A stretch of 62,141 nucleotides of DNA, counting the filler, from Hausera hauseri (taxonomy: Eukaryota): the NCBI GenBank assembly GCA_046269625.1. It is 12 parts of 12 records of this genome, joined end to end, with 100 filler letters (N's around TTAATTAATTAA, not from the genome) between each part and the next. Parts side by side here need not be neighbours in the genome. Positions count along the whole stretch, not along the records: positions 13,874 to 17,951 come from JBJURY010775980.1; 11 more parts are not named here. The stretch is one strand, 5' to 3'. This document shows, piece by piece, positions 321-49,259 of the stretch. Positions within the stretch are counted from its first letter, which is position 1; every line of letters begins with the position of its first letter. Under the pieces are notes generated by a model. The model ran no database searches and was not told the DNA's origin. It saw nothing but the letters and a program-made list of their open reading frames with translations. Both the position numbers and the translations under genes were made by a program.

Positions 321-1460
321 ATGATAGTTGTTGATGAAATGCCAAAGGCGTTAAAAGGTTATTTGCAGATGATTGAAATTCATAAACCCAGATCCAAAGA
401 ACAAGTAAATGCCGAAATCTTACCAAAATGGACTATGAGACAGTATGAGATAAACTCTAGTTTGGAAATAATACTTGGCAGATGGGTAATTTGGAAATTG
501 TATCATTCCAACATTGATGAGATTATTATGCTTATATTCTGTACTGAAAAGATAAATTATGTGAGAATATCGATGGAAGAATTGATGAGGGATTACGGAT
601 CAGTGAGGGTTTTGGAGAGCCTCGCTCAAATACTCAAGATTCATGTTATGGGAATCGTCTATCCCAAAAGAAACAGATTAATTAATTCAGAATTACTGTT
701 CAGAAATGGATTGATATTACAAATTGAGATGAGTTTTTTCGTTACCTGTTCTGATAAATTAAATGATTATTGTGAGAATTTCAGATTCGTTCTTCAGGGA
801 TTATCGTATCCAATAACATTGAAGTGTGCAAAATGGAATTGGGAATCGTTTTTCGAAAACTTCTACATGATGACGAGTGATTGTATATACGTTATTAGAG
901 ACTGTCAGTGTGGAAAAAAAGTGTTATACCAGGTTGAAGGTACTATTTATTATAATTGTCCTTGTTGTTTCCCTTTGTCTCTCTCCCTGGTCGTCGGCGG
1001 GGGTTATATGAGGTATGCGAATGGATATGTGTTTGAGTTGATGGATGATGGGGCACTCATGAACGGGTTGGGAAAAGATATAGGAGTTATGAAGGGAATT
1101 GCATGTATTAATCAGTTCGAATTAGATGAGATGTTGAATGAGGAGGGAGGATATATAGCAAAAGGGTTCACGGAAGTTAGAGTGAAAAACAAAGTCAATA
1201 GGGGATGTATATCTTGTGCGACTAACCATGCTCAAGAGTTTAAGTCGGGATCAAAACTGAAGTACATAGAAATAAATAGGCTCAGCGGGGATTATGTGAG
1301 GGGGTTTTTGGATCGTATAATGGATGGATATAAATTGAATAATAAGATGAGTGTACTGGAACAAAAAATGTTAAATGAATTTTATTTAAATTCTCCAGGG
1401 ACAGTTCGGTTGTACAGATCCGGATGTAGAGTTTCCTTCGTGCCACATACAAAAAAATGA
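321..1460 (+). CDS. Intact 379-aa ORF of unknown function with Cys clusters (CQC...CPCC, CxxC..H)
   Basis: ATG start and stop-free for 379 codons in AT-rich DNA; no family recognised. Confidence 0.5.
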   Translation: MIVVDEMPKALKGYLQMIEIHKPRSKEQVNAEILPKWTMRQYEINSSLEIILGRWVIWKLYHSNIDEIIMLIFCTEKINYVRISMEELMRDYGSVRVLESLAQILKIHVMGIVYPKRNRLINSELLFRNGLILQIEMSFFVTCSDKLNDYCENFRFVLQGLSYPITLKCAKWNWESFFENFYMMTSDCIYVIRDCQCGKKVLYQVEGTIYYNCPCCFPLSLSLVVGGGYMRYANGYVFELMDDGALMNGLGKDIGVMKGIACINQFELDEMLNEEGGYIAKGFTEVRVKNKVNRGCISCATNHAQEFKSGSKLKYIEINRLSGDYVRGFLDRIMDGYKLNNKMSVLEQKMLNEFYLNSPGTVRLYRSGCRVSFVPHTKK

Positions 1461-2030
1461 ATCGGGCGATTGCGATCCCAATATCGAGTTTAAACCTATA
1501 AAAAAACGGAATTGCTTCTGAGTTTAAAGGAAATGGAATTGGAAGGCATTCCAATTATAGAGGAAACAAATATGAATTATGAAAATTATAAACTATCTAA
1601 ACCTGCAGGTTACACAAGCGTCACTGATAACAGTCCGATGTTTGCAATTGACTTTGAAATGGTTGATTGTTACGTTGAAAATTTGAAACGAAACCAAAAG
1701 AGATTGGCCTCACTAGCAATAGTTGATGAAACGGGAAAATCTGTTTACTTTACGTACGTTAAACCGCAGGACTTCATTGTCAACTCTTTAACTCCGTCAA
1801 CAGAATTACCCCGGAAATTTTGGAAAATGTCACAAAAATATTGGCTGATGTCCAACGAGATTTAGATGATATTTTACCATCGGATGCAATTTTGGCTGGA
1901 CATTCGATTAGAAATGATTTGGATACTTTACAGCTATTTCATCCGTACATTATTGACACGTCGACAATATTTAGTTTGTGTGGTAAACGGCAAGTTAAAG
2001 TTGGATTAAAGAATTTAACGAATATTTTCT
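1455..2030 (+). pseudogene. REXO5: Intronless fragment of DEDDh RNA exonuclease (REXO5/REXO1-like), frameshifted near 1795 and cut before ExoIII
   Basis: SPMFAIDFEMV (ExoI DxE), YVKPQDFIVN, ILAGHSIRNDLDTLQLFHPYIIDTS (ExoII). Confidence 0.7.
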
Positions 2031-2397
2031 TATTTTTTCTATTAAAAATCCTGAACGATGGAATTGACGGTATTGTCGGCGTGACTTGTGTTTATCCCAT
2101 CGATTTGGTGAAAACTTGATTACAGAACCAACAAGAGGGAATGCGAATGCATAAAGGAAGGTTTGACTGTGCAACGAAGACGTTTAAATCAGAAGGATTT
2201 TTTAAAATGTATAGTGGGAGTGGTGTTAATTTGTTGTTGATAACGCCGGAAAAGTCGATCAGATTGGTCGATAAAGATTTCTTTCGATATTTGCTGAAAG
2301 CAGAAGGAAAAAAATTACAGCCATTTCATAAAATGTTACCGGTGGTGGTGCTGGTACGTGTCAGATTATCGTTACGACTCCAATGGAATTGTTGTTA
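2031..2397 (+). pseudogene. SLC25A22: Intronless fragment of mitochondrial glutamate carrier (SLC25A22/18-like), with a stop at 2117 and a frameshift near 2340
   Basis: GIVGVTCVYPIDLVKT*LQNQ, KSEGFFKMYSGSGVNLLLITPEKSIRL, then in another frame GGGAGTCQIIVTTPMELL. Confidence 0.75.
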
Positions 2398-2714
2398 ATA
2401 TTGTACAAAATACCCGAGAGTAAGTTTTGCGAGTATTAGGACTGGGCCAAATCTATAAGTCCTCCTTTCGCCATATATAGTCTGACTTTGAATCTGTTCT
2501 GTGTTCTGATGATAAAGTTAAGCATCTTCATTTGCCTTCTGCAACCGGTCTCTTGTTAGTTTCACCAGGTATTGAATATGGACAATTTGCAGGTGAAAAT
2601 TCCATAGTCTAGTTTCTGCCCTGTTTATAGGAATTTGTTAAAACATTAGTTTTCCCATGGTATGAAATGACAAAAGGCTAATGATCCTGTAAACAACCGC
2701 TTATTGGTTTCGAT

Positions 2715-4027
2715 TAAAAAACGCTACAGCATGTTACCTTTGCCACGAATAAGGCACTAAATTTGTTAGGGATCACTGCCATATTACGGGTAAATATTTG
2801 AGCTCAGCTTGTAATCAGTGTAACTTGGCTCGTAAGATAAGAGATAATTTACCTGGTATATTTCACAATTTGCGTGAATATGACCTGCATCATATCTTGA
2901 AACACGCATTAAGTAAATTTGATAGTTGGGAATTAAGTGTTGTTCAGCAAACAACTGAAAAGTTCCTATCAATGCAGGCAGTGATAGGCTGCTCAGCAAA
3001 AAAGTCAGTGTCCATTCGATTCCTCGACTCGTTACAGTTTCTACCTGCTTCACAGAAGACTTTGGCTTCCAATCTAGATAGTTACCCACTTACTGAGTCT
3101 GCTTTTCCTTCGGACATTATTAAAGGAAAATGTATTTTTCCATATACTACTGCAAAAGCTTTCAGTGACTTGCAATTCATTAAGCAGTTACCGCCGAAAT
3201 GGGATGGTGTTAGTGATAGCGATTATGAGGAAGCGCAAACGGCTTGGTCAAAATACAGTTGTAACTCTCGTTTGGATTATATGTTGGTATATATGAAGCG
3301 AGACATATACTTGTTAGGCGATGTTTTTGAACGCTTTAGAAAGGAAGTTAAGATGCAGGATGGTTTAGAGGCTGTTAATTTCCTTTCTATTCCGGGTTTA
3401 TCTGGGGCAACTGCACTAAAAACGATCCCGTGCTGTATTGAACTCATACAGAACCCTGAGATGTACTATTTCTTTCAATCGGGTATTCGCGGTGGTATGA
3501 CTTTTGTAAATAAGCATAGGGTTGTCTCCGATAAAAGCCCCAGTCTCTTTTACATATATGTAAACAATTTATACGGCTGGGCTTTACCGCAACCACTGCC
3601 ATTTGCGAATTTGGTATGGATATATGATGAGAATAAGTTAACTAACCTGATTGAACAATTGCCCTATATTGAGGGTTAGTCTTTGAAGTTGACTTAAGCA
3701 TTCCGGATGACAAACATCATAAGTTGGACCAATTGCCTCTATCCCCAATTAATAAATGTCCTCCTCGTTCAAAAGTTAAGAAACTGTTACTTACATATGC
3801 GCGTAAGTCCAACGATGTTGTTCACTACAGGTTCTTACAGTTGTACATCGAGTTAGGCGCTATAGTTGAAAAGATACATCGGGCCGTTGAGTTTGACCAG
3901 GGTTATGTCTTTAAGGATTATATCGAACTAAACATTGCAAAGAGGGCTCCAGGAAATAATCCTTTTGAAACAGACTTTTTAAGCTTAAGAACAATAACTT
4001 ATACGACAAAACTGTTGAAAATCTGCT
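2715..4027 (+). pseudogene. Degenerate protein-primed family-B DNA polymerase (Polinton/adintovirus-like), truncated at contig end
   Basis: RDHCHITGKY..ACNQCNL (Endo VII-like Zn), FHNLREYDLH (ExoII), IRFLDSLQFL, GIRGG, YVNNLYGWAL (Pol motif A). Confidence 0.85.
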
Positions 4028-4127
4028 NNNNNNNNNNNNNNNNNNNNNNNNNNNNNNNNNNNNNNNNNNNNTTAATTAATTAANNNNNNNNNNNNNNNNN
4101 NNNNNNNNNNNNNNNNNNNNNNNNNNN
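4028..4127. other. Artificial contig linker N44-TTAATTAATTAA-N44 (stops in six frames). Identical linkers at 8874-8973, 13774-13873, 17952-18051, 26642-26741, 30922-31021, 35150-35249, 39880-39979, 44134-44233, 52505-52604, 57860-57959
   Basis: Eleven identical 100-nt blocks; also 10-N scaffold gaps at 14317-14326 and 45219-45228. Confidence 0.99.
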
Positions 4128-4163
4128 CTGGAAAAAGTATAAATACCTTTCATTTTTACAAAA

Positions 4164-4652
4164 ATGCTGAGCAACATCAACTACAGAGGTGTCACTACAG
4201 TTTCATTGGGTGAATTCAAATTCGTATGTAGACCTAAACAGTGTGCTTTATGATACCCAGAATATGCGATTATATTATTCCTCCGTGAAAAATGCAGAAT
4301 AATGGGATGTAAGAAGCCCATTGATCCGTGAAGTTTGCCCTACAATATATCAATTGTGAAAATACAATTACTTACAGTTACATGTGATTTTGGCCAACCA
4401 ATAGATCTGAACGCATTGGCTCAGAATCATCCTAGATGTCTCTATAAACCAGAATTATTTCCGGCACTAAGATTAACTTGCTATAATCCTCTATGTGTAA
4501 ATGTATTTCATACGGGTGAAATTGTCATTACCGGTTTGAAGAATTCGAATTATAATGATTTTGTTACTTGTGTTTTGGATAATATATTATTATCGACTTA
4601 TATCTCTTTTCAAAAAACGCAACACGTGTGTATACAAAAACAACTTTGTTAA
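4164..4652 (+). pseudogene. Compact intronless TATA-binding-protein-like gene with two in-frame TGA stops
   Basis: Repeat 2: IQLLTVTCDFGQPIDLNALA..YKPELFPALRL..VNVFHTGEIVITGLK; short repeat 1: IILFLREKCRIMGCK; TATAAATA at 4138 before ATG 4164. Confidence 0.75.
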
Positions 4653-4975
4653 CACAACAATAAGAAGCTACCTTACCTCTACATGATCAATCATGTATAT
4701 CACCCTCCTCTTCTTCTTCTTCGATAATATCGATTTTCATTTCGTCATCACCACATTCACTGTGTCGGCAATCTTCGCAGCAGTCCTCGATCAATTCAGT
4801 ATCTTCAATTGGATTAGCTGCATCGAATTGAGTACATGTATATTCTGTAACATCTTCTTCAAAGCAGGAATTATAATCTTTGTTCATATAAGATTTATTA
4901 ATATTGTCTGTTATGTAGGTCATATTCCATATTTAGCACTTGTTTATACACCTCAACATTATGTGCATTTGTTTT

Positions 4976-5060
4976 AATGCATGAACTTGTCACGTATTTA
5001 TTATATTTCTTGTCATTGTTTGTTTTAAAGTATCAAATGATTTAAATATGTGGGCGCCAT
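4976..5060 (+). repeat. Imperfect direct repeat, partner at 7597-7695, bracketing the PolB fragment
   Basis: Both begin aatgcatgaacttgtcacgta and end aatgatttaaatatgtgg..ggcgccat. Confidence 0.8.
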
Positions 5061-7092
5061 TTCGTTTCCTTGAGTTCTTCGGAAGGCAGGTTCTTCACTA
5101 AACTGTTCAATAAAGACGACATGTATCAAAAACTATCGATGAAGCGAAGTCGGATTTTACCAACATGCTTAGTGAAAGTGATATATTTCTCCTCACTGTT
5201 GGGGATCACATCTATATTGCCATCAATGTTGCCTAATTTTCGGACTACGAAGTGGCTGTTATAACCGCTGAGATTATGGAATACTACAGGCTCATATTTG
5301 CATGTTTTTCAGCGAAGATTGCAGTTGTTACATTCTGTGCCCCGATATGCACCTGTAAAATGGCAGTGATCCTTGACTTTCCAATTTTTCTTGGTAAAGG
5401 ACTTGTCGCACAAGTAGCATGATGTTGCCTTGCGCCATTCTTCTTCTTGCATCCAAGACATGCTCATGTTGTCCTTATGTTGTTGCAGCATGTTTTGAGG
5501 CTTATGAGTCATGTCTTTAAGTCTCTTCATGAAATGTGCTGCTGCACATATACCCCTGAATAGATAGTGTTCACTGGCCAATCCTTTGGCATACATACAA
5601 TACGACGATAATTCATAATATTGGTATGCCGTTGTACTGCTATATTGAGGACTGGTACTGCATGTGTGAACTGGCCTGAGAATGACCTCAAAGGCGCAAT
5701 AGACGACAATTGGGACCTTGATCTTCTTCTCGAATTTCTTAAATTCGATATAGTCCTCTTTGGGAAATTCTGACCTTGCACAATAATTGTTGTTGCAGTA
5801 CATCTTGTGCTCTTTAAGTTTGTCCACGGCATCTTCACCACTGAAATGTAAAAAGCACCGTTTGCGTATTTTGATTCAGTGTTCATGCTTTGTTATTTGG
5901 GATTTGACTAGACGCCCAAAGTTTTTGATCCAAACATAATGTTTTTATCAACATCGTCTAGTCGGAGCAGATTCATATGATCTCCCAATTCATCATCACA
6001 TATTTGCAAGGGGTAGAATTTGCCCTCCTCATCCAATCCAAAGATATTGATGGACATGTTGTTGGTGTGACTGAACTTATTGATTTCATTTATGGATGGA
6101 GGGAATGTGATACGCTGAAAGTCGTATTTGCGTTGGAGATCATTATATAGCCAAATTCGATCTGCTGCATGTTTGTAATCCCGTACGAGTTTACATAAAA
6201 TGGCATATATAAAGCACTTGTTGTCATTAATATGGACATTGATGCAAGCCTTTTTCTACCAAATTTATTCCGAAAGCTGTATATATTAACTGCCTTACAT
6301 GGGGGAGTATCTATCCACATATATAAGCAGTCTCTTGATGGTTGCCAGAGCCCATCCACTCTTCTTATCCTGACTCTCATCGGCTTCACGGATCAGCTTC
6401 GTATGCTCTTCATGCACCCAATCAGTTATATTTGTGTTTTCTAATATGGGCCTATTTTTGGTCTTGAAGGCCCTATTTGATTCTTCAGCATCGACATTGA
6501 CGTATGTGGCCTCAAGTTTCATATTAACCTTAAGGGCCTTGAGCTCAGTCATATTGTCCTGGAGAATGCCCTCTGTTTCTTCCTTTGCATATTCCAGGAA
6601 CTCCTGGATGGTTGTTTGCCCAGCTGCAACAATGATATATTTGCGGACTTTTTTCTTTAATGCATCAGTATCAACTGGCCGCTGTCTTTGGCTTTTTGGC
6701 GGAACCGCTATGCATGTTGAGCCCGATGCATCTGATGGACCTGATTGGCCTGATGGGCGTATTAATTCTGAATCTCGATGTACTAAAGGCTGTACTTCTG
6801 CAGGCTATACTGCTGCGTCTGGCTATACTGCGGATTGTGCAAATGGTCTATACTCATTAAATATGATCTTATTGGACTTTGATCCGAAGTCAGTCAAATG
6901 ATGCTTGTAGTCTTCAGAAACCTGAATGTATTCTCCATCACATACAGTCTCACATCCTGGGCAAATATAATAGAGGATCCTATTGAATTTGTGGCCATAG
7001 TAGCTCCTCATGGTATTCTCGCAATTCTCAGGGTTATGTATTGTACATGTGCAATACACATATGAACTGCACCTTTGGTTTTCCTTTGACAC
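5061..7092 (-). pseudogene. N-terminal half of degenerate pPolB (paralog of 27236-30846), truncated after IRLRFIDSF
   Basis: DKKSGWAL, KKACINVHNDNKCF, C2H2-like region, KVKDHCHFTGAYRGTECNNCNLR, FHNLSGYNSHF. Confidence 0.85.
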
Positions 7093-8639
7093 AAAGACGT
7101 TATTGGCATATTAGTACTGAATATTTGTTTTTTCGACTAGGCGAAGGAAATCAAGTGCTGTTTATGGACATTGTAAAATTTCTCGTACCCTGTCCTGCAC
7201 ACTACCTCACATGTAGGGCATAATACTGAACCCTGTTGAAGATATGCCCAAAGTATTTCATCATAATACTATGGAAATTTTCCGTCTCACGGATTGGAGC
7301 CAAGCACTCTGTAAAGTTTGCACATCTAAACAAAGCAATTATTTGATGAGCACAAATAAGAAAACTAACCTTTCGCGGAAGTGAATTTGGAAATAATGAA
7401 AGATATAGCTATGTAAATGTGCACTGCCTAATTTTGACAATTGATGCTGTAAAACAAAACATGAAAAGAAATAATATGGATGCAGTAAAACAAAACACAT
7501 GTAAGGAAATAATTTTAATAGTGGGGTAACTTTGGCACTTCATATTGTTGCCAATACGTTGTATTGTCAACATCATACGTTTGTTTTAATGCATCAAATG
7601 CATGAACTTGTCACGTAATTATGCCATCGTATTGCTTGTCAACATCATGCGTTTGTTTTAATTCATAAAATGATTTAAATATGTGGCGGCGCCATATTCG
7701 AATAGGTTTTCATATATGCGGAATCGACTAAGCCATCAAATTCTTCGAATAATGCATGCTTGGCCGAGTATTCGAGTTCGAATCGATAATTCTTCGATTT
7801 CGAATAATGTATTCGAATATCTGATATCGGATTCGTAATCGCTATATATGCTTTCCTATCTGTGTATGCTTAAAGATTTATCGATTTTAGTGTGCTTCAC
7901 CTTCAAATTCACTTCAATTGCTTAATAAATATAAGAATTACTTAGCATTTATTAAGTACTTTTACCATATTGGAAAACCTTGTTTTTATACAGCGCGGTG
8001 CACTGCACCGCACTAATATTGACTGCCATATACGTTTCCACCAATGAGAATTCGAATGACTTCATTAGATTCTTTGAATAATAGATGTTCAACCGAATAT
8101 TTGAGTTCGAATAGCTAAGCATTCTACTTGTAAGCTCGAATTTGAATATATAATGTCATATTCCAATTCAACATACATGGCTTACTATCCGATCCCGCTA
8201 TTAGATTTATTGATTTTTGCTTCACTGGACTTTAAATGCACATTTTACTTAATTCGAAATATTGATTTTGTATCTATATATATCATTTTCATAGAATAAT
8301 TTTTATGTCTACGGGATTTTCATATATGGGAAATCGATTGCCGTTGTTAGGTTTTTAGAATAGTTCGAAATTCGATATTCGAGCTCGAAAATATACGAAT
8401 TTCGAATATTTGAATCGATATTCGAGATTGCCATATTCAGCTTCCTATCTGTCCCCGCTAATAATATTATTGAATTTTGACTCCTTAGGACCTAAAAAAC
8501 CTATGGGGAGTCTGTCTCAGTTGCAATTTAGATCGATATTATTCGAAAATTAATTGATAAGTTTAAATTCTAACTACACATCCATATACTGCACCATGTT
8601 TCTGTTCGAATGCACCCGATCACATGTCCTAATCACCAA

Positions 8640-8873
8640 TATTGGAAATATCGGAAATCCAATATTATTGATTTTTGCACATTTGCACGTGTTTTTGCAC
8701 TGCACAGTATACAGAGTTCACAGGAGCATCTCGATGAACTCTATCCATCTGCACTTGACCCCAATCGATTCCGTCCATCCTACGCTGCACAATGACAGAA
8801 AATGTGAAAAGTAAAAAAGTGCCTTAGCAACCGTATTGGAAATATCGGAAATCCAATATTATTGATTTTTGCA
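8640..8873. repeat. Perfect 40-bp direct repeat (8640-8679, 8834-8873), probably a ~194-bp tandem unit cut by the contig end
   Basis: tattggaaatatcggaaatccaatattattgatttttgca twice. Confidence 0.8.
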
Positions 8874-10471
8874 NNNNNNNNNNNNNNNNNNNNNNNNNNN
8901 NNNNNNNNNNNNNNNNNTTAATTAATTAANNNNNNNNNNNNNNNNNNNNNNNNNNNNNNNNNNNNNNNNNNNNTATTATTAATTATCATCTTGTTATTTC
9001 CTGGAGTAATAGGACAGATGATTAATTCAGAGACTGAACGAGCAAAAATATGACATGCCATAGCTATACAAGAAGATATGTTAATGAAAGCCCTACAGTA
9101 TAAAATAACATTCAGAGAAAGGTCAGAAAATAATAATTTGGAGTATGTTAGATCAAATGCCATCAACATATATAATGGGAATACAAATGATACCTTGGCA
9201 TGATAACAGAAGAGACCCTAATGAGCGACAGTATAATTGCCTATTCCACGCAGAGACCAATCATACAGAGTGTCTGGTACAAAACTCAGGTGTTCATTAC
9301 ATATACCTTACACTCATAAGGAAACAAGGAGATTATTATAGAAGCCAGAAAACGAAATTTTTTAGATCAATAGTAATCCCTACTAGACAACAGATGAATG
9401 AAACCTTATTAGACGAAATGATACTTAACCAAATGATAGCAAGACCCATGGGATTAAAAAGCGGGAGAAGCTGCATAGAGATCATAACAATGATACAATT
9501 GGTACATACTCGACGAATGATGATAAAGTTAATAGAGACAGTGATTCCAGAAGTTAGAGTTTGCAGGATCAAAGGTAATCATTAGCGAGTCTGTTGTATG
9601 GTTACAAGAGGAAAAATATACCATATCTATTATCTTCTGTTTCGAAAAAGAAATTGAAAATTCATGTATCCGGTAGAACGAAAAGGATCAACAATGTTCA
9701 TACAAAATAAGATTCAAAGAGTACGATGATATACAAGAAAAGATCACGACGCCATTTGTGCAGTCCTCGGGTGATGAAAAAGATGACTATCTTGATTAAA
9801 TCCTACGCTTCATATTATCGTCAAAAAATTTCCATATGGGATAACGTAACCATCATAGCAGCCCCCACTGCACTAATTATCTCCGTTAAATCAGATCTTA
9901 ATGTCGTAAAAATTAAATTCAGCTGTAAGAAACAAGATATAGTAGCTGTTAGGATCGGATAGCGTTAGGATCAGATAGCGATAGATAGCAACTCGAATGG
10001 ATAGCAGATAAATGGCAATTCGAATTGATAAAGAATTCAAAATCGATTAATTGGTTCAAAATCGATTAACTGACAATGACTCGAACCTCTAAATCGATTT
10101 TATTTTACTTTTGAGAAGACTGTACCAAATATGAATAAACATTGTATGAACATTTTATGAACTTGAACATTCTGTATATAGTATGAACAAACATTATATG
10201 AACATTTTGTGAATTGTACATCAACCTTATAACAGTTATATATTAGTAAACATTCTGTGTATATATGATTTTTCTTGTGTTCTATTGTCGAGCCTCCATG
10301 ATGGGCATTTTTATTGTGCTGTTGTCTGTAAATTAATTGTGACCCATTTTTTACAGCCATTATGAAAACATGAATGTTACCTGAATTGTAAATTAGAAAT
10401 GGAAATTAGTTAGTAGTTTGATTCGAATTAGTCAGCAACTTAATTATAGAAAATTGAATCAACCAGCTGTT

Positions 10472-10650
10472 TGACGTCAAATGATTATAAAATTCACCAG
10501 GATGACGTCAAAAAATAAAATTAGATTATGAAATTCACATATCCGCTATTACCAGGATGACGTCAAAAAATAAAATTAGATTTCAAAATGAAAATAGAAA
10601 ATTAAATTTAGATATCCGCACTGAATGCACTGAATAGAAGAGTATAAATA
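10472..10650 (+). promoter_or_regulatory. Candidate Pol II promoter: three CRE palindromes plus TATA
   Basis: TGACGTCA at 10472, 10503, 10558 (last two within a 31-bp direct repeat); TATAAATA at 10643. Confidence 0.4.
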
Positions 10651-11949
10651 CACATGAAAATATAACACAAACACACATCAAATTTATTGTACTGAAACTT
10701 ATTGAGCTAAACATTATTCCGACAAGGAGGTATTTACGCCTATATTGAGGTATTTTACATTTGTTTGAGGTTATTATCGTTCATTGTATTCACATTGATA
10801 GAAGAGAAATAGTCCTAAGTCAATACAATATTTTACGAAACGTCATCTCATCAAAAGCAGTATTTTACGAATTATTATCATGGCTGATCAAGAGAACAAT
10901 CGTCCCGACTCACAGGTTGACATGTCAGGTAGATATTTGATGTTTAATTGTATGAGTTTCAAAGTAATGGTTGTAGTATTATTTATGGTCTTATGTATTT
11001 ATGATTTGTAATATCAATAAAATTTAGTCAAATAATTTGAACCGCAGGTTTATTTCAAATGTTAACGAAAACGACTCTCATTTTACTTTAGATATGCTAG
11101 ACAACGGCACTGAACAAGTAGAGTTAACCTGACCATGGCAGATAGTCACAAGCAGAGTATTAACACTGCCTGGAAGATATGGAATGGCTATTAATTGGGA
11201 CGTGACAATCCGTGGTTATCATACAGAAGATCTTCCAATAACCAGCTCTACGAATACGGTGCTATTTGGGAAATCCGTACGACCTTAAACGATGACTAAA
11301 GGGATTTCGTTGTGGGAGTCTCAGGTTATGACGACTGAAACATAAAGAGTATTAGAATGGTTATATATCGAATATATATATTCGTTTTTACTTTAAACCG
11401 TGTATTTATATTAAATGAGTCATTAGACCCTATTCCTATACTGATAAATTAAATTAGCAATGCTAGAAGCTAAAACACGGTTCATTGCCTGGTATAGCAA
11501 TGTTTGCCATTTCTATGGAAGAAGTAGAATTATTGCCAGTATAGTAATACAAAATATCGATCATGACATTGTAAGATTACCACTGACTGTAAATATTCAT
11601 CCAAGTAAACTGCAACATTAGTACAATGGATATAAGATAACTTATTAAGACAACATGTTTCTTTCACGGTGGACTTACGACGTGGTAATGATATGGAACT
11701 TTGATGTAATATTTATACAGAAATAGACCTCGCTATCTGGGAGCAGCCTTATTTCTCATTCGAGGTATGACCGATTTCAAAGAAAGAAGATTATGTATAA
11801 ATTTGTTGATTCTTAATTATTTCATGTTGTTGTATTGCATTGTCATCTGGCAAGGGTGATTATTAAGACATTTGTATTGAATGTTTATCGAATTATCGTA
11901 TAATTAGATTTGTTAGAATTGTATAAATTACTTATTGTTTGAGCATTAA

Positions 11950-12850
11950 TTTCGTTCCATTCTCGCTGGCGCATTTCCTAAACTCCATGTATTGTCTTTG
12001 CAACGTACTTTAAAACGTTTTTCTTCCAAATATTCCAGATAGTCTCAATGATATTCAAATCTGGTGAAATGGCTGGATAATAGTGTAACAAACATATATA
12101 TCTAGATTACAAATTTGTCGTAGATTGCACGGAGATCCGTCGTGCATACAAATATCATCAGGGGCATAAAATGGAAGAATACCTTATTCCAAAACACTTT
12201 GATACACAGATGAATCTAACCTATTAGCACACCGAATCAATTTTTTGATCCATCGCCTCGAACACATACCCAAACTAATAAGCATTTGCAAAACATTAAT
12301 ATCTTGGTAGTATTTTCGATATACCTTTATTCAATACGTCGTCTAACAAACTCTTTTGTCGGGAATGCAATTCAGTCCTAGATTCATCGCTAACTATTAC
12401 GTTTTTCCAATAATTAAACCTTTAATTTCTATAATCTATGTACCATTGTAATCGAGTCATAATTTGCTTTAAAAAGGTTTCTTCACGGCCAATCTTCCAT
12501 AAAGGCCATATTTCCTTAAAATATTCATACTTTATCGATTGATACTTTAATTTCTGTAATTCAATCTTTGTTGTGATCTCTAGCAGTATATTTGTGATTT
12601 AAAATTGGCAGTCTTTTAAGTTTTCGCCTTTCACGTAATGTTGTTTTTGGTGGTATTCCGCTTCTGATGTTGTCTGAAACGTCTATGGTAAATCTTCATT
12701 TCTTCCATATATTTTGGACTGATAAACATGACAGAGGATATATTTCTGCTACTTTACTGCTCCTTGTATTAAATTCTTATTTGTTTGTTATTTCTTGTGT
12801 TTGTAAAATATACATTAAAAGTGCCTGGAAATTTTTGCAATACCATAATG
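11950..12850 (-). mobile_element. Degenerate Tc1-type (DD34E) transposon
   Basis: WKNVIVSDESRTEL and SPDLNIIETIW motifs; terminus-like sequence at ~12775-12850 resembles 13305-13385. Confidence 0.75.
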
Positions 12851-13873: not shown

Positions 13874-15191
13874 TCCTTATCCACAAGTTTTCGCTTAATC
13901 GAAATGCTGGCGACATGGTATATGTACAATGTTGATGTACATATGGTTTCTTTGTCGGATCCAATAGTATCCGTGTAATTGGTTGCAAGAAGCACGGCTT
14001 TTCCTTGTATCAAATAGGTAACTCTATTGTACAGTCAGTAGTTGGTCTTAATTTGACAGCTACTTTTGTACATTCGAAGGTTACAAGCGTTTCACCCATT
14101 GTTCGAGCGAACTTCCCTTCTGCATCATTTATTATTTCATCCGTTATCGATGACAAATACATCCGATTTCTAATTATCTCTCTATTCAGTTTGCAATCAT
14201 TTAATATTATCTCTCGATACATAACATAAATATTTTCTTGCTGGAAGTAATAAATAAAATCAATCGTATTATCAAAACAGAGGTGGGGTTTCACATATGA
14301 TTTGTCAATCTTCCTTNNNNNNNNNNTTTGTTCGGACTACTGTGTGGTCACATCTCCTAGTATCATTTTCTAGTTTAAATCGCATTCCGTCTTGGGGATT
14401 TTCTGAATATACTATGGTGGCAGTCTCAATCATATCCGATACTCGGTCTAGTCTGCTCTTAGATATTTCTTCTTTGTACATTCATCCTTTTGTTTCGTCA
14501 AACTTTCCTGTTTTTAACAAGGCTAACTGACACTGATTCCTATAATCTTCGTATGACATGATTGATTTATCGGTGTCACATTCTTTATTATAGTAATCAC
14601 ATTTAGGGAATGTCATCATCTTTCCTGAGGATAATTCGAAGATGGCATCGTACTCTCTCAGTTAAACTTGATAATCTTCAATGGCCACTATATTGTCCAA
14701 AATTTCACCCTTTATATTGTAGTACTCACTGTTACAATATCCCGTCTTATCAATTGTCCCAGCCACAAAAATTATTTTATTAATAATTTTTTCTTTCTGG
14801 GCTTTCAATCGAATATTGCCAATATTAATCTGTTTTGTCACAAAAGTCTATGCACAATCGTTTACTTATAGGAAGTGGCTCGAGCGGAGTAACTGGTTCA
14901 ATTATTGGTGAATTTCGATACCAATGTCCGCAAATAAAATGAAAGTGATTTTTTAACAAAGCATTATTTCACCTTAGTTTTCACAAATTGCGACTCTTGA
15001 TAAACGTAGTATTCTTTTTCTTATATTGTAGTTAATGACGCTGGATTGTCAAATGGACATTTTTCTAGGTCTAGTAAGGAATATATTGGACCTTATTTAG
15101 CTTGACTACAATCGTAAGCAACGATTAAAAGTCTTTTTGGCATCAGGCCAAACAGAAGGAGTATAGGTATAACTTTAGTCAGCCATGATAA
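13874..15191 (-). pseudogene. Chuvirus-like (class III, gB-type) envelope glycoprotein, N-terminal two-thirds
   Basis: Hydrophobic signal VIPILLLFGLM then IVAYDCSQ..YSLLDLEKCP; NDCKLNREI; GKFARTMGETLVTFECTKVAVKLRPTTDCTIELPI. Confidence 0.8.
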
Positions 15192-15945
15192 ATCGAAGTC
15201 TGGTTGTAGATTTCATTGGCTCTTTGATTGTTGTGGTGGACGATATTCTGTTCGTTGTTGTGTAACTGGAGCCGATTCATGTATTGCTGTATGAACCAAA
15301 CTGGTAATCCTTCTACCTCTACATCTTACCCATCCTTTAACATTGGCCTTTAAAGCTCTTGTAGCAATTTATATATTTCTCTTTATCTCTTCCTGATTCG
15401 GATTTACACCATTCATCACCATTATCTTATACAAGAAATAGGATATTGCTGTCACGATTTTATTTCGGTATATGCCAGTCCCCATCATTCTAGATCATAT
15501 GTCTCTTTCCTGAATTTCATTTATCCTCTCATCCGTAAGGACATCTTCATATTGTTAACTAATCTCATTCCTTATAACTTGCATTAGTGATTCCGGTATT
15601 TGCAGATTAGTATTAAACTCAAGGAATTTATTGTGCATTCTTGCTAACAAGTTTTGTAGTAATGTTGTCAGTGATACATTATCTACGTCATATTCATTTT
15701 CCGTTGTTAGCAATCTTCGAACGACTTTGTCATCTCTGGCTTTCCTGCCTTTCAATTGATAGAGTTTCATCGTTCCTTTTGGTCTGCCACGGTTTCTCTT
15801 ATCCGTTTTATATTTGTTCTGATATAGGAATATTCATTCCAGTTTCTATTTGTTGAGTCTGATGCTGATGTTCAGCTTCTTCCATTTCTTTTCGCCTAAC
15901 ATAGGTGATAAGTTCGTCAATTATCTCTTGTTCCGACTGTTTATA

Positions 15946-16160
15946 AGTAATTCTCACAGGATTGTATCGGTTTTCACAGATTCCTACTTCATATGAAGTT
16001 TTGTAATCCATCAGCGTTCGTCCGTAGAAGCCTAGCTCTGATTCTCTTTGAGACTGGTTTATTTCGTTAATTTTATGTTTTAATATAGCTATTGTATGCG
16101 ACGATTTCATCCTCAGAACATAAAAGTCCTGGTTATACTGTTGGAGAGTAACCATTACTT
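15946..16160 (-). other. Ubiquitin-like domain inside the Gag-Env reading frame (also ~50010-50225)
   Basis: VMVTL..YVLRMKSSHTIAILKHKINE..LGFYGRTLMDYKTSYEVGI aligns to ubiquitin TIENVKAKI..LIFAGKQLEDGRTLSDYNI; no C-terminal GG. Confidence 0.65.
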
Positions 16161-16899
16161 TAGGGTTTTCTCTGACTGTCCTCACTCTATCAGCGTACCG
16201 GTAAATTATATATCGTGCGACATTTTAATATGGACTTGTGCCAGCAGCATACATTAACAGCAAGTCCAATAAATTAACAAATTGTTGAATGCTGATTGTT
16301 GGCGACAGTAACTTGGGCAGGTCTTGTCTATACCAAATGCTATCAATTAATTCTCGGTTGGCATAACTGGATATTTTTTGAACTATTTCTACGCTATCCT
16401 GATCTAAATCTACAGGTGAAGACTCATAACTTGGAAACTGTTCCTTTATTTTCTTTTTCCTTATTCTTTTTACCTCCTCTTTGGGTTCACTCCCTCTACT
16501 TGACTCACTCTTTTCACTTCCACTTTCGGAGGGTAAGTTCGGTTCCGGAGTCTACAATTCCTCTTCTTGTATCAAAGGTTTATGCTTTTTCTTGGCCTTT
16601 TTCTTTACTGTATTCGATTCTGATACAGGAGTCTTTTTAAACCTACCAACAGGTCCAAAATTCATTATTATGTCTTTCCTCACAATTTTTTGCTCCTTTA
16701 ATTCAAGATACAGCCGTTTTATTTCAGCTATCTTATCTTCGTCTTCTATTGTATTACTTTTGCTTTCTTTTGATTTAGATCTGATCTTCTGCTGTAGTTT
16801 TTTAATTGTTCCTTCAGGCTTTGTATCTGTAGTTTCATGCTCATTATCCGTATCAGATATATTGCCTACTATGTCAACATTCTTCTTCTAACTTAACTG

Positions 16900-17669
16900 T
16901 CCTTGGTTAGGACAAAAGCGAGCTATATGTCCGTATTTTTGACAGGCGAAGCATAATGGTTGGCCGTTCTGGTTAACCGTTGATTTCCTTATCGCAGATT
17001 TTTGAGGTTGGTCTGGTTATTACGGAACCTTCTTTGGATGTTACTTTGTTTGATTCTGGGTTTTATAAAACAACTTTTGAAAATTTTTCACCCTTTTATC
17101 ATCGGTTCTAGGAGGTTTTTTGGTATTTTCCAAACTTTCATAGTTCAACTCAATTTTTCTAGCTTTACTGACAGCTTCTTTATAGGTGTCAGGATCGGCA
17201 AGCATAATATAGTTTTGAACTTTCTTATGAACTCCATAGCAGAATTGAGCCAGGAGGGCATCTTCTCTTATATCGACATCTGCGTAGGTTCCCCGAACCA
17301 ATGTCTGAAAGGCACATGCAAATTCTTGCACTGTTTCGTCTTTCCACTGACGTTGCGTGTTAAACTCTCCTATTCAACCTTTCCCGATGGGTCTACTAAG
17401 AGTCTTTCTTCCAAGGCGTCCTCAAGGCTAGCCCAATTGGCTTTGTCATCATCCGTAAGCTGATCATAGGCACCAAGTGCCATTCCTTTAAGATGTGAGG
17501 GAAGACGCTGTATCCTAAGGTCATATGACCATGCAAAAGTTTGTGAATACATTTGGTATTGCATTAGAAAGTCACTATAATCTTGGTCCGGTTTTCCTTC
17601 CAACTTATCCATCTGAAGGACCATTGTACCAGTTGTACTTGAGCCAGTTCCCATTTCATAGATAGACAT
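16900..17669 (-). pseudogene. Gag (capsid plus CCHC nucleocapsid)
   Basis: LEGKPDQDYSDFL..LPSHLKGMALGAYDQL, QFCYGV..PDTYKEAVSKARKIE, zinc knuckle. Confidence 0.85.
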
Positions 17670-17805
17670 TGGATTCCTTTCTATGTAAGTATTTGGTTCA
17701 ATTAAGGGGTTTTCGTCTGATTCAGAACTACTCCTTGCTGAATCAGTGCGTGAAATTGTAATATTACCATTAACTCTACTTTAAGTGTTTTATGCCAGTG
17801 TGCCT

Positions 17806-17822
17806 GCTAACTCGGGTCACCA
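17806..17822 (-). promoter_or_regulatory. Primer-binding site
   Basis: ..TTATCA-C-TGGTGACCCGAGTTAGC; consensus with 51789-51805 (TGGTGCCCCGAGTGAGG) resembles the complement of the elongator tRNA-Met 3' end. Confidence 0.65.
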
Positions 17823-18051
17823 GTGATAATTTTATGAGGTTTGGAAGAAGTTTGGGTCTTCACAACCCTAAACGTATACTATTACTTATACACAAAAGGT
17901 CTGGAGTTTCTCGTTCCCCCTAAAGCAGCGTTTTACTATTTAGTCTTAGAANNNNNNNNNNNNNNNNNNNNNNNNNNNNNNNNNNNNNNNNNNNNTTAAT
18001 TAATTAANNNNNNNNNNNNNNNNNNNNNNNNNNNNNNNNNNNNNNNNNNNN

Positions 18052-18955
18052 TTGAATACCGATATCGACCTGGAAAAGATAATACAGACGCAGACGCGAT
18101 TTCTAGGTAACTTTATGTGAAAATAGTAGCCGCAGCTTATAAACCACGAGATAAAGAAAAGAACAAATAACAGAACGAAAAAATTATCAATGAGATGCTA
18201 TAAGAACAGCGACAAATTCATGTTCGTAATATCGAAACATTACAAAATCGTGATTCATTCATTGTTCGAGTAAAACAATTAACAAATGGACATTCGCCTG
18301 ATCTAATATTACAAAATATTTAGAAATTCTACGAAAAACACAAAGAACAATCGGGAATAGAAGATTATATTCCAAAACTCAAAGTTGACGAACGAAAATT
18401 GATAATCGTACCTAACCCAGCAATAAAAGCCGTCATGTTACAAGAATGTAACTCACATCTAGACGGTCACCCATCTTTAAACAAAATTTGGAGCGTACAA
18501 CTGCTAAATATTATTGGTCTCAAATGAATAAGCATTGAAAGATGGGTTCGTTCTTGCAAAATTTGTGCTATGCGAAAAGATAGAGGTTTTCGCACAAAAC
18601 CCTTTCTGAGCAGTCTTCCCGAAGCACGCAAACCTATGGAAGTTTGTTCAGTAGATATTTCGGGACTTTTTCCAACCGTAGATGCTGGATACAAATACAA
18701 ATTATCACTTGTCGATTATTACTCCGAATATGTTGTTCTAATACGATTGAAGAACATTACCATAGTACTTTTGCAGAAGCATTCTTCTATGAAATAGTGG
18801 CAGAATTAGACAAACCGAAACAATTGTTAACCGACGGTGCGTCGTATTTTGTTAGTGAGTTTTCGAGAAACTGTCAAAAATATTTCAGTGTTACACACTT
18901 CCTACAATCCATAATGCAACGGTACGGTTGAAAGAATGAATTGGACAATTGAAGG
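18052..18955 (+). pseudogene. Ty3/Gypsy integrase fragment, cut by the LTR at 18956
   Basis: YRPGKDNTDADAISR, HLDGH..CKIC, PMEVCSVDISG, LVDYYS, LLTDGA, NGTVERMN. Confidence 0.85.
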
Positions 18956-22313: not shown

Positions 22314-23822
22314 TCATTTCTTCAAAACCTTGTCCATTCCTTTGAATATCTTTGGAGCCTTTGGAGTTGTTTCATATAATGCCCCGACTGGCTCCACTTC
22401 TGTCGGGGCTCTGCCTTTTGGGTTTGTCGACTCTGTGATGGATTCTTCATAGTATTCGTCAATATTTGCAACTTCTGCGTGTTTGCAGTTCACTCTTTCT
22501 CCATATATTTTCTGACCATACCCCGCACGTTTGAAATTGTCGGTATACGTATTTTGTCCTCTTCTGCTCTTGTACAATCTTGTGTAACATGCTTCTTCCA
22601 TGTGCCCTGTATTATGACATTGCATTTTATGTTTATGCAGTTTCGTCTTGTGTCCTTGCTGACCGCACCCATAGCATAATATGGGTTTCCTTTCTGGGCA
22701 ATTCATGTTAATGTGCCCTTCTTTCCCGCAACCAAAACATCTTGGTGCATGTTGGAGGTTGCATGTCCTGCTTGTATGCCCATCCTTTTGGCACGACAAG
22801 CATTTCATCGTGCTCTTCCTGCGTATTGTACAGTTGAAGTCCATTCTTTCCTGCCTTGGTTTGTCAAATTTGTGCACTACATCCCGGTAACTTCGTCGAC
22901 ACTCTCTAGTGTATTCTCTGACTGTGTTTATCTCTTCCGTCTTTGTTGCCACTTCGTGGACTTTCCCTATTTTCTCTTTGACGTTTTTTTCGTCACTGCG
23001 GTAGATTTCCTTTCTCATCTCTGGATTGTCAGAGCAGTGGATCATCAATTCCTATGTTAGAGCTTCCAGTGTTGCTTTGTGGCTAAGAATGATCTTCGCC
23101 AGTTGTTCAATTTTGTTGAAGTAGGCGTCTGATTCCCCGTTCTGTAGTTCGAGGCCTCATGCATATCACACAGCGTTGTGGGTTTTGAAAAGGCTTTTCT
23201 CAACTGGTTTTGGTATTCTTTCACCTTCTGGTTCACCAGATTGTATTTTTCCTGCGCTTCTTCCGCCAAAAGACACGGAACCGGTTCTGCCCCCCCCTCA
23301 TTCTGTAGTTAAAGGCCTCATGCATATCTCCGCACAGCGTTGTAGGTTTTGAAAATGCTTTTCTCAACTGGTTTTGGTATCCTTTCACCTTCTGGTTCAC
23401 CAGATTGCATTTTTCCTGCGCTTCTTCCGCCAAAAGACACGGAACCGGTTCTGCCCCCCTCATTCTGTAGTTAAAGGCCTCATGCATATCTCCGCACAGC
23501 GTTGTAGGTTTTGAAAATGCTTTTCCAACTGGTTTTGGTATCCTTTCACCTTCTGGTTCACCAGATTGTATTTTTCCTGCGCTTCTTCCGCCAAAAGGCA
23601 CGGAACCGCGGTTTCCCGGTCCAACTCCGGCATCTTTAAGAAGTCGAAGTATCTCTCGCATTTCCCAATAAAGGTTTCCACGTTGTCACCTTTCTGGAAT
23701 TTTTTGGGCATTAATTTCATCTCGAAGAAGTCCCTTGAAGCGTTGGTCGCCATGTTAGTAGATCGCGTCTCTACCGTCCAGACCTCAACATCACTTGATG
23801 ACTGTAAGATAGAATTATCCAT
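22314..23822 (-). pseudogene. gag with about four CCHC knuckles and an internal triplication
   Basis: CLSCQKDGHTSRTC, CFGCGKEGHINMNC, CYGCGQQGH.., ..NTGHMEEAC. Confidence 0.85.
23140..23608. repeat. Three near-identical ~162-bp tandem units in gag
   Basis: Units start at 23140, 23301 and 23463. Confidence 0.9.
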
Positions 23823-27235: not shown

Positions 27236-30200
27236 TTACATTAATGCAACATGCCCGTAAGTTAGTGTGCTTATTCCATCACCCAGGATCAGCCTTTTGT
27301 CATCCATCCAATCTAGGCTTTTCTTCTGTAATATTACTGCCTCCATGGTATGAGCCCTAGAACTCTGCATAACTCTAACATAGTTATTGAAGCCAATCTA
27401 TTTGGCTAGGGTCGCCCTCTGAATCCCTTTAGCCCGTTTCTTTACCTGGCCACTTACATCGATGACGTACATTTTTTATCTCAACGTCACGAAACGGGTG
27501 ATGATTTTCCCATTCACCTCGTCTTTAAACGTCCCGAGGACCTTGTTGGAGGTTAAATAATTTGGATGATCCTTCGGATAGTCCGAGGTATCCACATGTT
27601 GAGCCAACTTAGCAAAGTCCTCATAAATGTCCTCCGGATGGATTTGATAGATGAAACTATCAATATCCATATACATCAGCTCCACCTCCCTGAATTTGGG
27701 GACCATGATGTTGTAATGAAAATCATACATCAGGGTCTTTGACAAGTCCGGCTTGTTAAACTCCATGGATGTCTTGAGCATATGTATGCTCACCAGGTTT
27801 TCTGTATATATTGTGCTGGAATGGAAGTTGGGCTTGGCAATGAGCTTCTTTGCCCGCTTCCAGTCATACAAACTCGATATTTATCCTGTTTCAGGTGTTC
27901 TCCATCGTTTTGCCAAAGACCAAGTTGTTATACAACTTTAATTGGTCCTTTTTAAAGTCATTTTTGGCATTGGCCCTCAGCTGCGTGTTGAAGTCTATGC
28001 AGGGTTGCAACCACATAGACTGGTTAATTGATAGGGCACGATGGATCCTTGTGACTTTGACCCCATTCCTCATAGCCTGCTGGAGATTTATGTAGTGGGC
28101 TACATACCTCTCCTCATCGTCCAAGTGGCAAAACAACTTCTTGTGTTTCCTATTTGGTGGTTGCTTACTCTCCAGGAGAAAAGGGCAGTTGTTCATGCCT
28201 TGAGTAGATGCTATGGGGATATTCTAAATCCACTTTTAATATGTAGTCCGTATCTCCATTGGGGTCCATATCTTGTATTGACAGCTCTTCAGGATGCTCC
28301 GCCAACTTAAAATTGTCATAGGGCAATGGGGCACTCATTATCCATCCATATAAGTTATTTGCAGACAGGTATATTATATATGATGATTATCTGGATGTAT
28401 CATATTCTGCCACTATACCTGTAAATGGTCTGACAGATTCCTCGCCGAATACCTCGCTCGATTATTAGGATCATATCACAGTCCTTCAAGATCTGGAGCC
28501 GTATACTTGTATTGTGTAGCATCGCTGCCCAGCTCATTCCCGGAGCCGTGAAAAAACGAGCTGTGTCCAATTTGTGGCTCTTACGTGTAACATCCCTGAA
28601 GCTTTCAAATACATCTGCCAGCAGCAGCACATCTGTGAGGAGATAGATGTCATTATATTCCCCTATGGTCCTACATTTGAATGCTTTCCAGACATTTTGA
28701 GCATGCACGTTGTCCGCATCGCTGATGTCAGTGTCTGAAAGCCTGCTGTAAAAATCCTTCTTAGCAGGCAATTCCGTATCGTCAAGAAATCTCCATGACG
28801 TTATGTAGTAATAGGGGAATACTCCTTTCCTTTAGACTAAGCCAAATGTTGCCCGGAATAACCGCTTAGTTTCCTTGAACTCATCAGCTGGACGATTTTT
28901 GACCAGACTGTCAAGGGATGAGCTCATGAAGCGGAAACTGTATATGAAACGAAGCCGGATTCTTCCCACATGATTTGTGAATGTGACATATTTCTTCTCA
29001 CTGTTTGGGATCACATAGATGTTTCCTTTAATAGCCTCCAATTTACGAACTATGAAATGGGAATCATAGCCGCTGAAGTTGTGGAATGCCACGGGGACAT
29101 GTGTATGTTTTGCACCGTAAGTTGCAATCATTGCACTCGGCGCCTCGATACATGTCTGCTGTATGGCAATAATCTCGGATTTTGTGATTGTCTAATGTGA
29201 AGGATTTTTCACACAAGTAACACTGTGTTGCATTTTGCCATTCACATTTCTCCTTTTGCGACATTTTTATAATATTCGTACTCTGCTGCTGCATTTTTTT
29301 CTATCTTATGTGCAATTTCCTCCAAGCGTTTCATGAAATGAAGTGCTGCATCTGAACCCCGGTATAGGAATGGCTGCTTGTCCATTCCTAAAGCATACAT
29401 GCAGTATGATTACAGCTCATGATATTGGTAAGCTGTCGTGATGCTTTTCTGCGGATTCAGAGTGCAGCTGTGAACTTGGTTGAGGGTGGCCTCAAAGTCA
29501 CAATATATGACAATCGGCACCTTCAACATCTTTGCAAACTCTTTGAATTCCAGGAAATCCTCCTTGGGGAATTATCCTCCGATGCAATAGTTTGTATTGC
29601 AATAGGTCTTATGGCCCTTGAGCTTCTCTGCGACCATATCACCACTGAAATAGGATAGACATCGTTTGCAGATTTCCAGCCTTGACTTATGCTTAGATAT
29701 TTGGGATTCTACAAGGCGCTCAAAGTTCTTGATCCCAATGAAATGCCTCGTTTCTCCATCATCTAGCAGGATCAGATCTATATGATCCTCCAATTTTTCC
29801 TTTCACACATGTAAGGGATAAAATTTGTCCTCCTTTAATCCGAAGATGTTGATGGAGATGTTGTTCACGCTTTCAAATTTCACGACTTCATCTAGGCTCG
29901 GCGGGAATGAAATAGAGCAGAAGTGATATGTGTGCAGCACTTTGTCATATATCCCAACTCTGGAAGCATTATGTTAATCCTGGACCAGTTTTGACAAAAT
30001 AACATACACGAAACACATGCTGCCCTCATTATGGACATTGATGCATGCCTTTTTCTTAACTATCTATTCAGGAAGCGGTATGCAGGAGCTGCCTAGCAAG
30101 GGAGAATACTTGTGCACATGAACAGGTAACCCCTTTATTGCTGCTAGAGTCCAACCGCTCTTCTTATCCTGGATTTCTTTGGCTTCGCGGATGAACCCTG

Positions 30201-30846
30201 CATAGTCCTTAATAATAAAATCCTTAATGTTACAGGATTTCAATAGTAGCCTTTTCTCTGTCTTGAAGGCTCTACTAAATAGTTCTCGTTCAACATTGGT
30301 GAAGGTGGATTCCAATTTGAAGCTTAGCTTAAGGGCCTTCAGCTCCGACAAGTTGTTCTGGAGAATTCCAACTGCCTCCTCTTTTAAATATTCCAGGAAT
30401 TCGTGGAGAGATGTCTGCCCCACAGCGGCTATGGAATATCGCCACACTTTGCTCTTCAGTGCAATGGCATCAACTACTCGCTGCCGTTGACGTTTTCGTG
30501 ATACACTATTCGCTGCCACTGTGCCTCGTTTATGCTGCGCTAAGGATCTATTATGCAACACCGGGGATCCAGGGCTCTGTGCCGAGGTTGACGCTGCGGG
30601 GACTAGCAGCGATGCAGCTGTACAAGGCATAACCGGAACAATACCTCCCATGTGTGCAGATGTTGAAGGCGTAAGGGGAACAATGCCAGTCTTGAATATG
30701 GCCTTGTTGGACTTGGCCGTGAAATCGCACAAGTGGGTTTTATAAAATTCATAAAACTTACAGTATTCTTCGGTACTGACAGTTTCACATTCGAGGCATA
30801 TAAAATATTCTTCGCTGTTCCAAATCTGACCATAATATTTTGTCAT
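27236..30846 (-). pseudogene. Near full-length degenerate pPolB (Polinton/adintovirus-like)
   Basis: FHNFSGYDSHF, LLADVFESFR, ANNLYGW, KLYNNLVFGKTMEN, YMDIDSFIY, C-terminal DDKRLILGDGISTLTYGH. Confidence 0.92.
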
Positions 30847-31459
30847 ATTTTCATGGAATATCTGGGCATCATGTGAACCATTTGATACAGAATATGTGTA
30901 TATTTCACATTTTTCAATGTTNNNNNNNNNNNNNNNNNNNNNNNNNNNNNNNNNNNNNNNNNNNNTTAATTAATTAANNNNNNNNNNNNNNNNNNNNNNN
31001 NNNNNNNNNNNNNNNNNNNNNTCATACTTTTCCAAACATTATAAAAGCTGGCTGGGTTCATGAATTCTAGATCGTATCGAAACAATACTGATTAAGTGAA
31101 AAAATAAAATGGTATCTTACGAAACAAATCTAACACTCCCGTCCAACTTTAACAAATGCGATGCCACTGGGCACCATTTTACTCTTATCACGATTTGATA
31201 ATTATTTTGTATTGATTTTTTTTCGACAATTATTCAAATGCATCTTTTTTTTAATTCGTGCTTTAATTTCTAATTTGCATGTCAAATAGGCAGAGCCGAT
31301 GTCGGCTGTTAGATAAAAACCAGAAGTTTTTAAGTGACGGGTGTAGAGCCAGAGTTATCTCCAGTTGAACATAATCGAAGCCTGTAGTGGTTATCTTGCA
31401 GGAATATTATATGCTCGAGTCAGTAAAATAAAAAGAAACATATGACTAAAGTGCTCCAT

Positions 31460-49258: not shown

Positions 49259-49259
49259 A

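Follow-up and report, generated by a model that had tools for sequence, protein, structure and literature searches.

A Ty3/gypsy element of Hausera hauseri that probably encodes Gag, a class III-type fusion glycoprotein and Pol in one reading frame

An envelope (env) gene placed between gag and pol has been described in several kinds of long terminal repeat (LTR) retroelements. The closest described example is Burro/GYPSM1, a gypsy-like element of planarians, in which one open reading frame (ORF) joins Gag with a CCHC knuckle, a Ubi/SUMO-like domain, a BCL2-like domain, env, and then protease (PR), reverse transcriptase (RT), RNase H (RH) and integrase (IN). This ORF1 is 4,873-5,140 amino acids (aa) long in an element of 25-30 kb, which is present in thousands of copies, and its env shows matches to fusion glycoproteins of mononegaviruses (PMC6431247; Arkhipova and Yushenova, 2019). 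The order GAG-ENV-POL with a gB-type env is also found in errantiviruses of Nematoda, Bryozoa and Platyhelminthes (PMC13524379; Chary and Hayashi, 2026); the words "polyprotein", "in-frame" and "ubiquitin" are absent from the main text of that paper, which addresses neither a single frame nor an accessory cassette. In the NERV metaviruses of nematodes, env again precedes pol (Sacco et al., 2022, as cited in PMC13524379). A further example is Atlas virus of the Belpaoviridae, whose Gag and envelope are parts of one uninterrupted polyprotein of 2828 aa (PMC9094657; Merchant et al., 2022). Here we describe a Ty3/gypsy element from Hausera hauseri (GenBank assembly GCA_046269625.1), represented by two decayed copies, A and B, in a 62,141-nucleotide (nt) stretch of DNA in which 12 contigs of 4-8.6 kb are joined by N-spacers (hereafter, the window). 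The best explanation of the data, to which we assign a probability of roughly 0.78, is that this element encodes a gag-env-pol polyprotein in a single frame, with the products released by a scheme of membrane threading.

Both copies and all their coding features given below lie on the minus strand. Copy A occupies a whole contig (13874-17951) and is truncated inside env by the contig end. Copy B lies within the contig at 44234-52504; its gag-to-env region spans 46590-51671 and includes the env transmembrane anchor near 46850-46590. The two are 69% identical across 3226 nt. An initial annotation had proposed one ancestral frame from capsid to fusogen, and the layout on which it was based is real: in copy A, the knuckle, a Lys/Glu-rich linker and a ubiquitin-like domain (UBL) share one frame, and an RGRP motif, a helical domain, an internal signal and the start of the glycoprotein (GP) share another. 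Copy B is open at the shift of copy A (~15807), at its stop after the knuckle and at its stop before the signal. Neither copy has PR or RT between gag and env, as had been noted. More frame shifts, not mentioned at that time, are present within the capsid and GP of copy A.

The single frame is supported by a natural relative. In a search with the UBL region, a protein of 1130 aa, P0001, was the sole match among 215 longer-protein candidates, with 57% and 75% identity to the two main frames of copy A. P0001 is open as far as about residue 1124: its frame covers the capsid, knuckle, UBL, RGRP motif, helical domain and internal signal and enters a GP of the PF24664 type. At each of the three junctions it lines up with A and B to within 6 nt, so that no gap the size of an intron has to be assumed. 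Between its capsid and its knuckle, ~50 aa are missing. Thus, the proposed capsid-to-fusogen frame is found in a natural protein without any consensus being built, and the breaks in A and B mostly differ. When the middle region of P0001 was used as query, P0001 itself was the one match in 8000 candidates of near length, 6089 shorter candidates contained no match, and a search of the ESM Atlas gave no usable match; these blank results are no sign that relatives are absent or that the protein is novel. In scans of viral contigs and GTDB genomes at the DNA level, no relative turned up with P0001, with P0010 (described below) or with the alignments A4 and A5. P0001 found no relative in JGI contigs, and one locus was found with alignment A5.

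The breaks in A and B were scored against P0001. In copy A there are 16 stops, along with 6 frameshift calls; 4 of these calls are its own, one falls at an N gap and one where P0001 itself goes out of frame. The figures for copy B are 12 stops and 22 frameshifts. A and B have no frameshift in common within 3 codons, and the stops are opposite a sense codon of the other copy at 12 of 14 positions in A and 9 of 10 in B (in each count, one of the positions pools the stops of a ~50-codon stretch absent from P0001 and is no true comparison). One stop inside the capsid domain is common to both copies, and P0001 and P0002, another relative, are open there. The frameshift that separates the two main frames of copy A (15805-15810) is present in A only, with B and P0001 colinear across the site. 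At this UBL-to-RGRP junction copy B is exactly colinear with P0001 and copy A is one base off; 31 Logan contigs also diverge from copy A at 15808. Substitutions between A and B show an excess at the third codon position in 6 of 7 blocks (each p<0.002), namely the capsid, linker, UBL, AT-hook spacer, Bcl-2-like domain and GP.

The Gag side of the frame is of the gypsy type. A broken Ty3/gypsy-type capsid domain in copy A (17110-17645) was located by tblastn to P0001, residues 25-178 of which match the dArc2 capsid (E 0.0068), and P0002 matches Ty3_capsid (E 0.0036). The capsid is followed by a CCHC zinc knuckle (16906-16953; PF00098, E 0.0019). These E-values are weak (0.002-0.007) but concordant. 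The Lys/Glu-rich linker (16396-16905), recognized from the sequence, is kept in P0001 and P0002 only. Next, four helices are predicted by modeling in a domain that precedes the UBL (16174-16395), and this domain could be aligned in P0016, P0032, P0005, P0012 and P0010. It is reminiscent of the TFIIS N-terminal domain; a Pfam search gave no match, and the domain is left unnamed. The UBL itself (15937-16170) lacks a C-terminal Gly-Gly. Its AlphaFold model has a mean pLDDT (predicted local distance difference test) of 83.5 and matches ubiquitin (Foldseek E 2e-5; VIA Z 13.3, root-mean-square deviation 1.5 over 76 residues), and the profile matches the ubiquilin UBL (E 3.7e-4). At the level of the predicted model, the UBL fold is confirmed. 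Ubiquitin-type cleavage signals are known from pestivirus insertions; such a role was set aside for this UBL because of the missing Gly-Gly end.

An RGRP motif, recognized from the sequence, follows at 15780-15791. We take it to be AT-hook-like, DNA binding being only putative, and in P0001, P0005, P0006, P0009 and P0016 a GRP[RK] motif precedes env or the Bcl-2-like domain. The helical domain pointed out in the initial annotation (15282-15695) is likely Bcl-2-like, with moderate support from its modeled fold and its similarity in the BH1/BH2 region. A profile of 8 sequences matches Bcl-xL over the BH1-BH2 region (E 4.5e-4), and the top 23 rows of VIA for the model are all of the Bcl-2 family (Z 8.7-5.9); the best Foldseek E was 0.059. 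The next segment, at 15117-15185, resembles a signal peptide, with cleavage predicted before a YDC motif. It corresponds to a hydrophobic stretch at residues 784-802 of P0001, and the residue at -1 to YDC is Ala, Gly or Val in all 16 proteins compared. Behind it lies the N-terminal two thirds of a class III-type (gB/chuvirus-like) fusion GP (13874-15116, up to the contig end), which matches PF24664 Monjiviricetes_fusion (E 3.2e-19). In a GP tree of 17 rows, a single 9-row clade with support of 95/94 includes all six GPs that come with the cassette; long branches are present in the tree.

The initial annotation regarded this region as a self-contained structural polyprotein of ~1400 aa. This does not agree with what lies behind env. 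Downstream of the copy B env, an RNase H and an integrase had gone unmentioned. The RNase H starts mid-domain directly after env (46173-46436; PF17917 positions 45-105, E 1.2e-12), about 220-330 nt from the env anchor, and the integrase includes a zinc finger, core and C-terminal part (45048-46020; PF17921, E 7.9e-17; PF00665, E 6e-5). In copy B, too, the env upstream of RNase H and integrase is of the gB/chuvirus type (PF24664). The distance from the env tail to an RNase H landmark is 223 nt in copy B, 741 aa in P0010 and 1375 aa in L001, a relative known as a contig; since the same landmarks are so far apart in these two, copy B appears to have lost PR and RT. It keeps RH followed by IN, and the full order PR-RT-RH-IN is seen in L001 and P0010. 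Among the stored proteins, the best matches of the copy B integrase are the env-bearing P0010 and P0006.

In the relatives, pol is in the same frame as env. They were taken as the best 150 of 1381 matches to P0001, giving 151 stored proteins, 52 of them with GP. Among 42 that carry the GP N-terminus, 7 have an in-frame capsid or knuckle upstream and none has an upstream RT. Among 16 that carry the GP C-terminus or a complete env, the frame of 12 goes on to a protease motif or RT, the 16 including two near-copies; P0004, P0012, P0114 and P0131 do not continue past env into either. Where env is complete, a hydrophobic peak is present at the env anchor, upstream of the first protease. P0017 extends from Gag to integrase within 2146 aa. 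In L001, raw genomic DNA contains one stop-free frame of 3426 codons, open at the 5′ edge and running from UBL to beyond the integrase through Bcl-2-like domain, signal, GP, anchor, proteases, RT, RNase H and integrase. Judging from these sequences, the frame probably continues past the fusogen.

Some relatives have features of their own. In the L001 polyprotein (2-10282, plus strand), protease-like domains occur several times, and a signal-ectodomain-anchor block is added both between the proteases and after the integrase; the protease is also repeated in P0003, P0005, P0006 and P0009. A second surface protein after the integrase is present in L001, P0006, P0010 and P0022, and at the 3′ end of copy B its match is weak (E 0.07). 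Directly after the L001 polyprotein is an ORF for a DEDD-type exonuclease (10617-12107, plus strand; PF00929, E 1.4e-5), and DEDD-type exonuclease ORFs are carried by rotifer LTR elements (PMC5408684). P0010, a 2627-aa protein with knuckle, UBL-like domain, env and pol, is filed as a hypothetical protein of a Flavobacteriaceae metagenome-assembled genome and likely comes from a mis-binned eukaryotic contig.

Several observations weigh against the single gag-env-pol frame and its release scheme, and they are considered here with the alternatives. Within the family of A and B the env-to-pol junction is unseen: A stops at the contig edge, P0001 goes out of frame near residue 1124, and B is without PR and RT. 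In none of the sequences of this family does env continue into protease, and P0004 and P0012 end 24-28 aa past the env anchor region, at what may be a stop or a contig edge. These points would suit a stand-alone Gag-to-Env polyprotein of ~1400 aa, as first proposed; pol would then have a frame of its own behind it, with a frameshift or read-through leading there, and separate control would also avoid making Pol one-to-one with Gag. In the 9-row GP clade, however, 5 of the 7 members with complete env continue into protease, as does L001, and the P0004 tail, compared by eye with L001, seems to have slipped out of frame. We consider this alternative unlikely.

Other points concern the region just before the signal. 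There A and B each have their own stop, at most 3 codons apart, and the block of spacer and signal (48 codons) shows no third-position excess (p 0.48), this spacer being fast-evolving. The hydrophobic peak before YDC is under the threshold of 1.6 in P0003, P0005 and P0009. P0016 ends 22 aa past the Bcl-2-like motif without env, which again may be a stop or a contig edge, and in some relatives the hydrophobic core is closely preceded by a Met. It could be that the frame is continuous, yet env is produced mostly from a spliced or internally started message, as in Drosophila gypsy, and the Gag-Env fusion is a minor product. On the other hand, 7 of 8 proteins with the Bcl-2-like domain continue in frame over 52-82 aa into the YDC signal and GP despite deep divergence, and 4 of 16 (P0001, P0003, P0012 and P0015) have no usable Met ahead of the core within 60 residues. 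This explanation is given less weight than a stand-alone Gag-to-Env product.

Most relatives are predicted proteins, known from their amino acid sequence. A single frame that is an artefact of decay, or of gene models joining separate ORFs, may be suspected from the heavily broken A and B and from P0001, itself known as protein only and without the ~50 aa between capsid and knuckle, but it is very improbable: A and B show the same colinear order across the junctions, the record of P0010 is labelled as prokaryotic, so that unspliced gene calling would be expected in it, and for the span from UBL to integrase it is largely refuted by L001, which is raw DNA.

The single gag-env-pol frame suggests how its products could be separated. 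The Gag half (Gag-UBL-hook-Bcl2) would be made in the cytosol. The internal signal would then thread the ectodomain into the endoplasmic reticulum (ER), where host signal peptidase would cut before YDC. With the env anchor acting as a stop-transfer sequence, Pol would return to the cytosol and its enzymes would be freed by the protease of the element. The cleaved signal may stay as the membrane anchor of the Gag-UBL-Bcl-2-like piece, placing the capsid beside env for budding. The Bcl-2-like domain may dampen host cell death, and the UBL may bind host ubiquitin machinery without being conjugated. These steps are deduced from the topology that the domain order and frame imply. It counts against the scheme that the Bcl-2-like model is weak (pLDDT 56) and that a Z of 8.7 is low for a helical bundle. 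More tentatively, and in our estimate somewhat more doubtful than not, the env signal may double as Gag anchor and as tail anchor of a viral Bcl-2, so that one ORF would weave through the ER membrane to yield a tethered capsid, an apoptosis inhibitor, a class III fusogen and Pol.

The initial annotation compared its capsid-to-fusogen polyprotein, released by an internal signal peptide, to the structural polyprotein of alphaviruses. In alphaviruses, capsid is followed by an internal signal and glycoprotein, release is by host signal peptidase, the fusogen is of class II and a subgenomic RNA is used. The element here similarly has a capsid and then an internal signal with a glycoprotein, and release by signal peptidase would be shared. 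The likeness extends no further than this putative step. The frame here likely also holds replication enzymes.

Nearer parallels are found among retroelements. As in Burro, a Ubi/SUMO-like domain lies between Gag and the BCL2-like domain, and the BCL2-like domain directly precedes env (this at moderate strength, given the weak model). Env is likewise in frame with gag in P0001, and in L001 and other relatives outside the A/B family it is in frame with pol. Unlike in Burro, no more than ~810 aa precede env, there is a single knuckle, and an RGRP motif and four-helix domain are present, neither of which is mentioned where Burro is described. No match to MATH, BIR or ankyrin domains was found in P0001 at E<=1, and a strict Burro would carry MATH between Gag and the Ubi-like domain, within a much larger accessory region. 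Judging from its sequence, the element appears to work like Burro and to belong with the gag-env-pol gypsy elements. We do not place it in Burro in the strict sense, because the MATH-bearing large accessory region is absent. The layout had been taken as new. This cannot be maintained, as an in-frame env between gag and pol with Ubi/SUMO-like and BCL2-like domains is already known from planarian Burro (PMC6431247). Gene order and env class are also those of the errantiviruses introduced above. By eye, the domain I-II sequences of six Schmidtea env proteins resemble the GP here in motifs and cysteine spacing far more than nematode ones do (PMC13524379), and the nematode sequences in the supplement of that paper look like a different subtype. 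Atlas virus has Gag and envelope in one polyprotein as well; it differs in its order Gag-Pol-Env, its class II phlebovirus-like env and its BEL/Pao lineage. NERV, an RT clade of chromadorean nematodes, shares the position of env before pol. The NERV ORF is reportedly a continuous gag-env-pro-pol frame, and we know of no UBL or Bcl-2 cassette in it.

The two copies show further signs of their history. From one public run, 11,527 short contigs align to copy A (window 14330-17951), mostly 80-95% alike, and their changes relative to it are dominated by C>T, G>A, A>G and T>C; copy A thus belongs to a decayed family with a very high copy number. A sequence like a primer binding site lies immediately interior to the presumed 5′ LTR end of copy A (17811-17822), with a TGG-starting motif at 17822, which presumably fits a tRNA 3′ end; a 41-nt counterpart of 78% identity is found in the 5′ flank of copy B. 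No LTR pair was found in the short contigs, including that of copy B. The env of copy B is split by an insertion of ~0.8 kb (47670-48510, plus strand), seen as a gap in the match to P0001 and Tc1/mariner-like by eye from its translation.

The window contains other elements. A gypsy pol in the contig at 18052-26641 was considered as part of the A/B family and rejected, being a different element with its own gag; this separate gypsy element has several knuckles, a full pol and tandem ~162-nt repeats in gag (23169-23620), and an integrase fragment lies on the opposite strand to it (18054-18910). Fragments of a protein-primed DNA polymerase B, presumably Polinton-like, are found at 2753-3679 (PF03175), 5309-6804 and 30064-30969, and two of the polymerase B contigs are 66% alike over 1.6 kb. 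A non-LTR ORF of 980 codons with endonuclease and RT lies at 58626-61568 (minus strand), and a weak RT at 32131-33276 (plus strand) in a contig of 23% guanine plus cytosine. At 54306-56210 (minus strand), parts of DUSP, ATP-guanido phosphotransferase N-terminal, CLU and BACK domains follow one another within a stop-free frame of 634 codons, which looks like captured gene fragments. An intronless gene for proteasome subunit beta-1 is present at 38507-39229 (minus strand), with the best scores to mammalian and then yeast entries, which gives no more than a hint that the host is an animal.

The interest of the element is limited by the facts that its layout is in print and that both copies here are dead. 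The parts worth following are the compact cassette and the anchor model. If the anchor reading is true, relatives that add one or two surface proteins would make a retroelement polyprotein like that of flaviviruses or pestiviruses, well beyond the giant Burro. The cassette indicates that the Burro layout is not tied to giant size: a Gag-UBL-hook-Bcl2 unit of ~810 aa recurs, at 25-40% identity, in a supported clade of env-bearing gypsy elements. Its domains are small and foldable, and with them one can ask how capsid, fusogen and enzymes are made by an LTR element from one frame, and whether the death of host cells is blocked by it.

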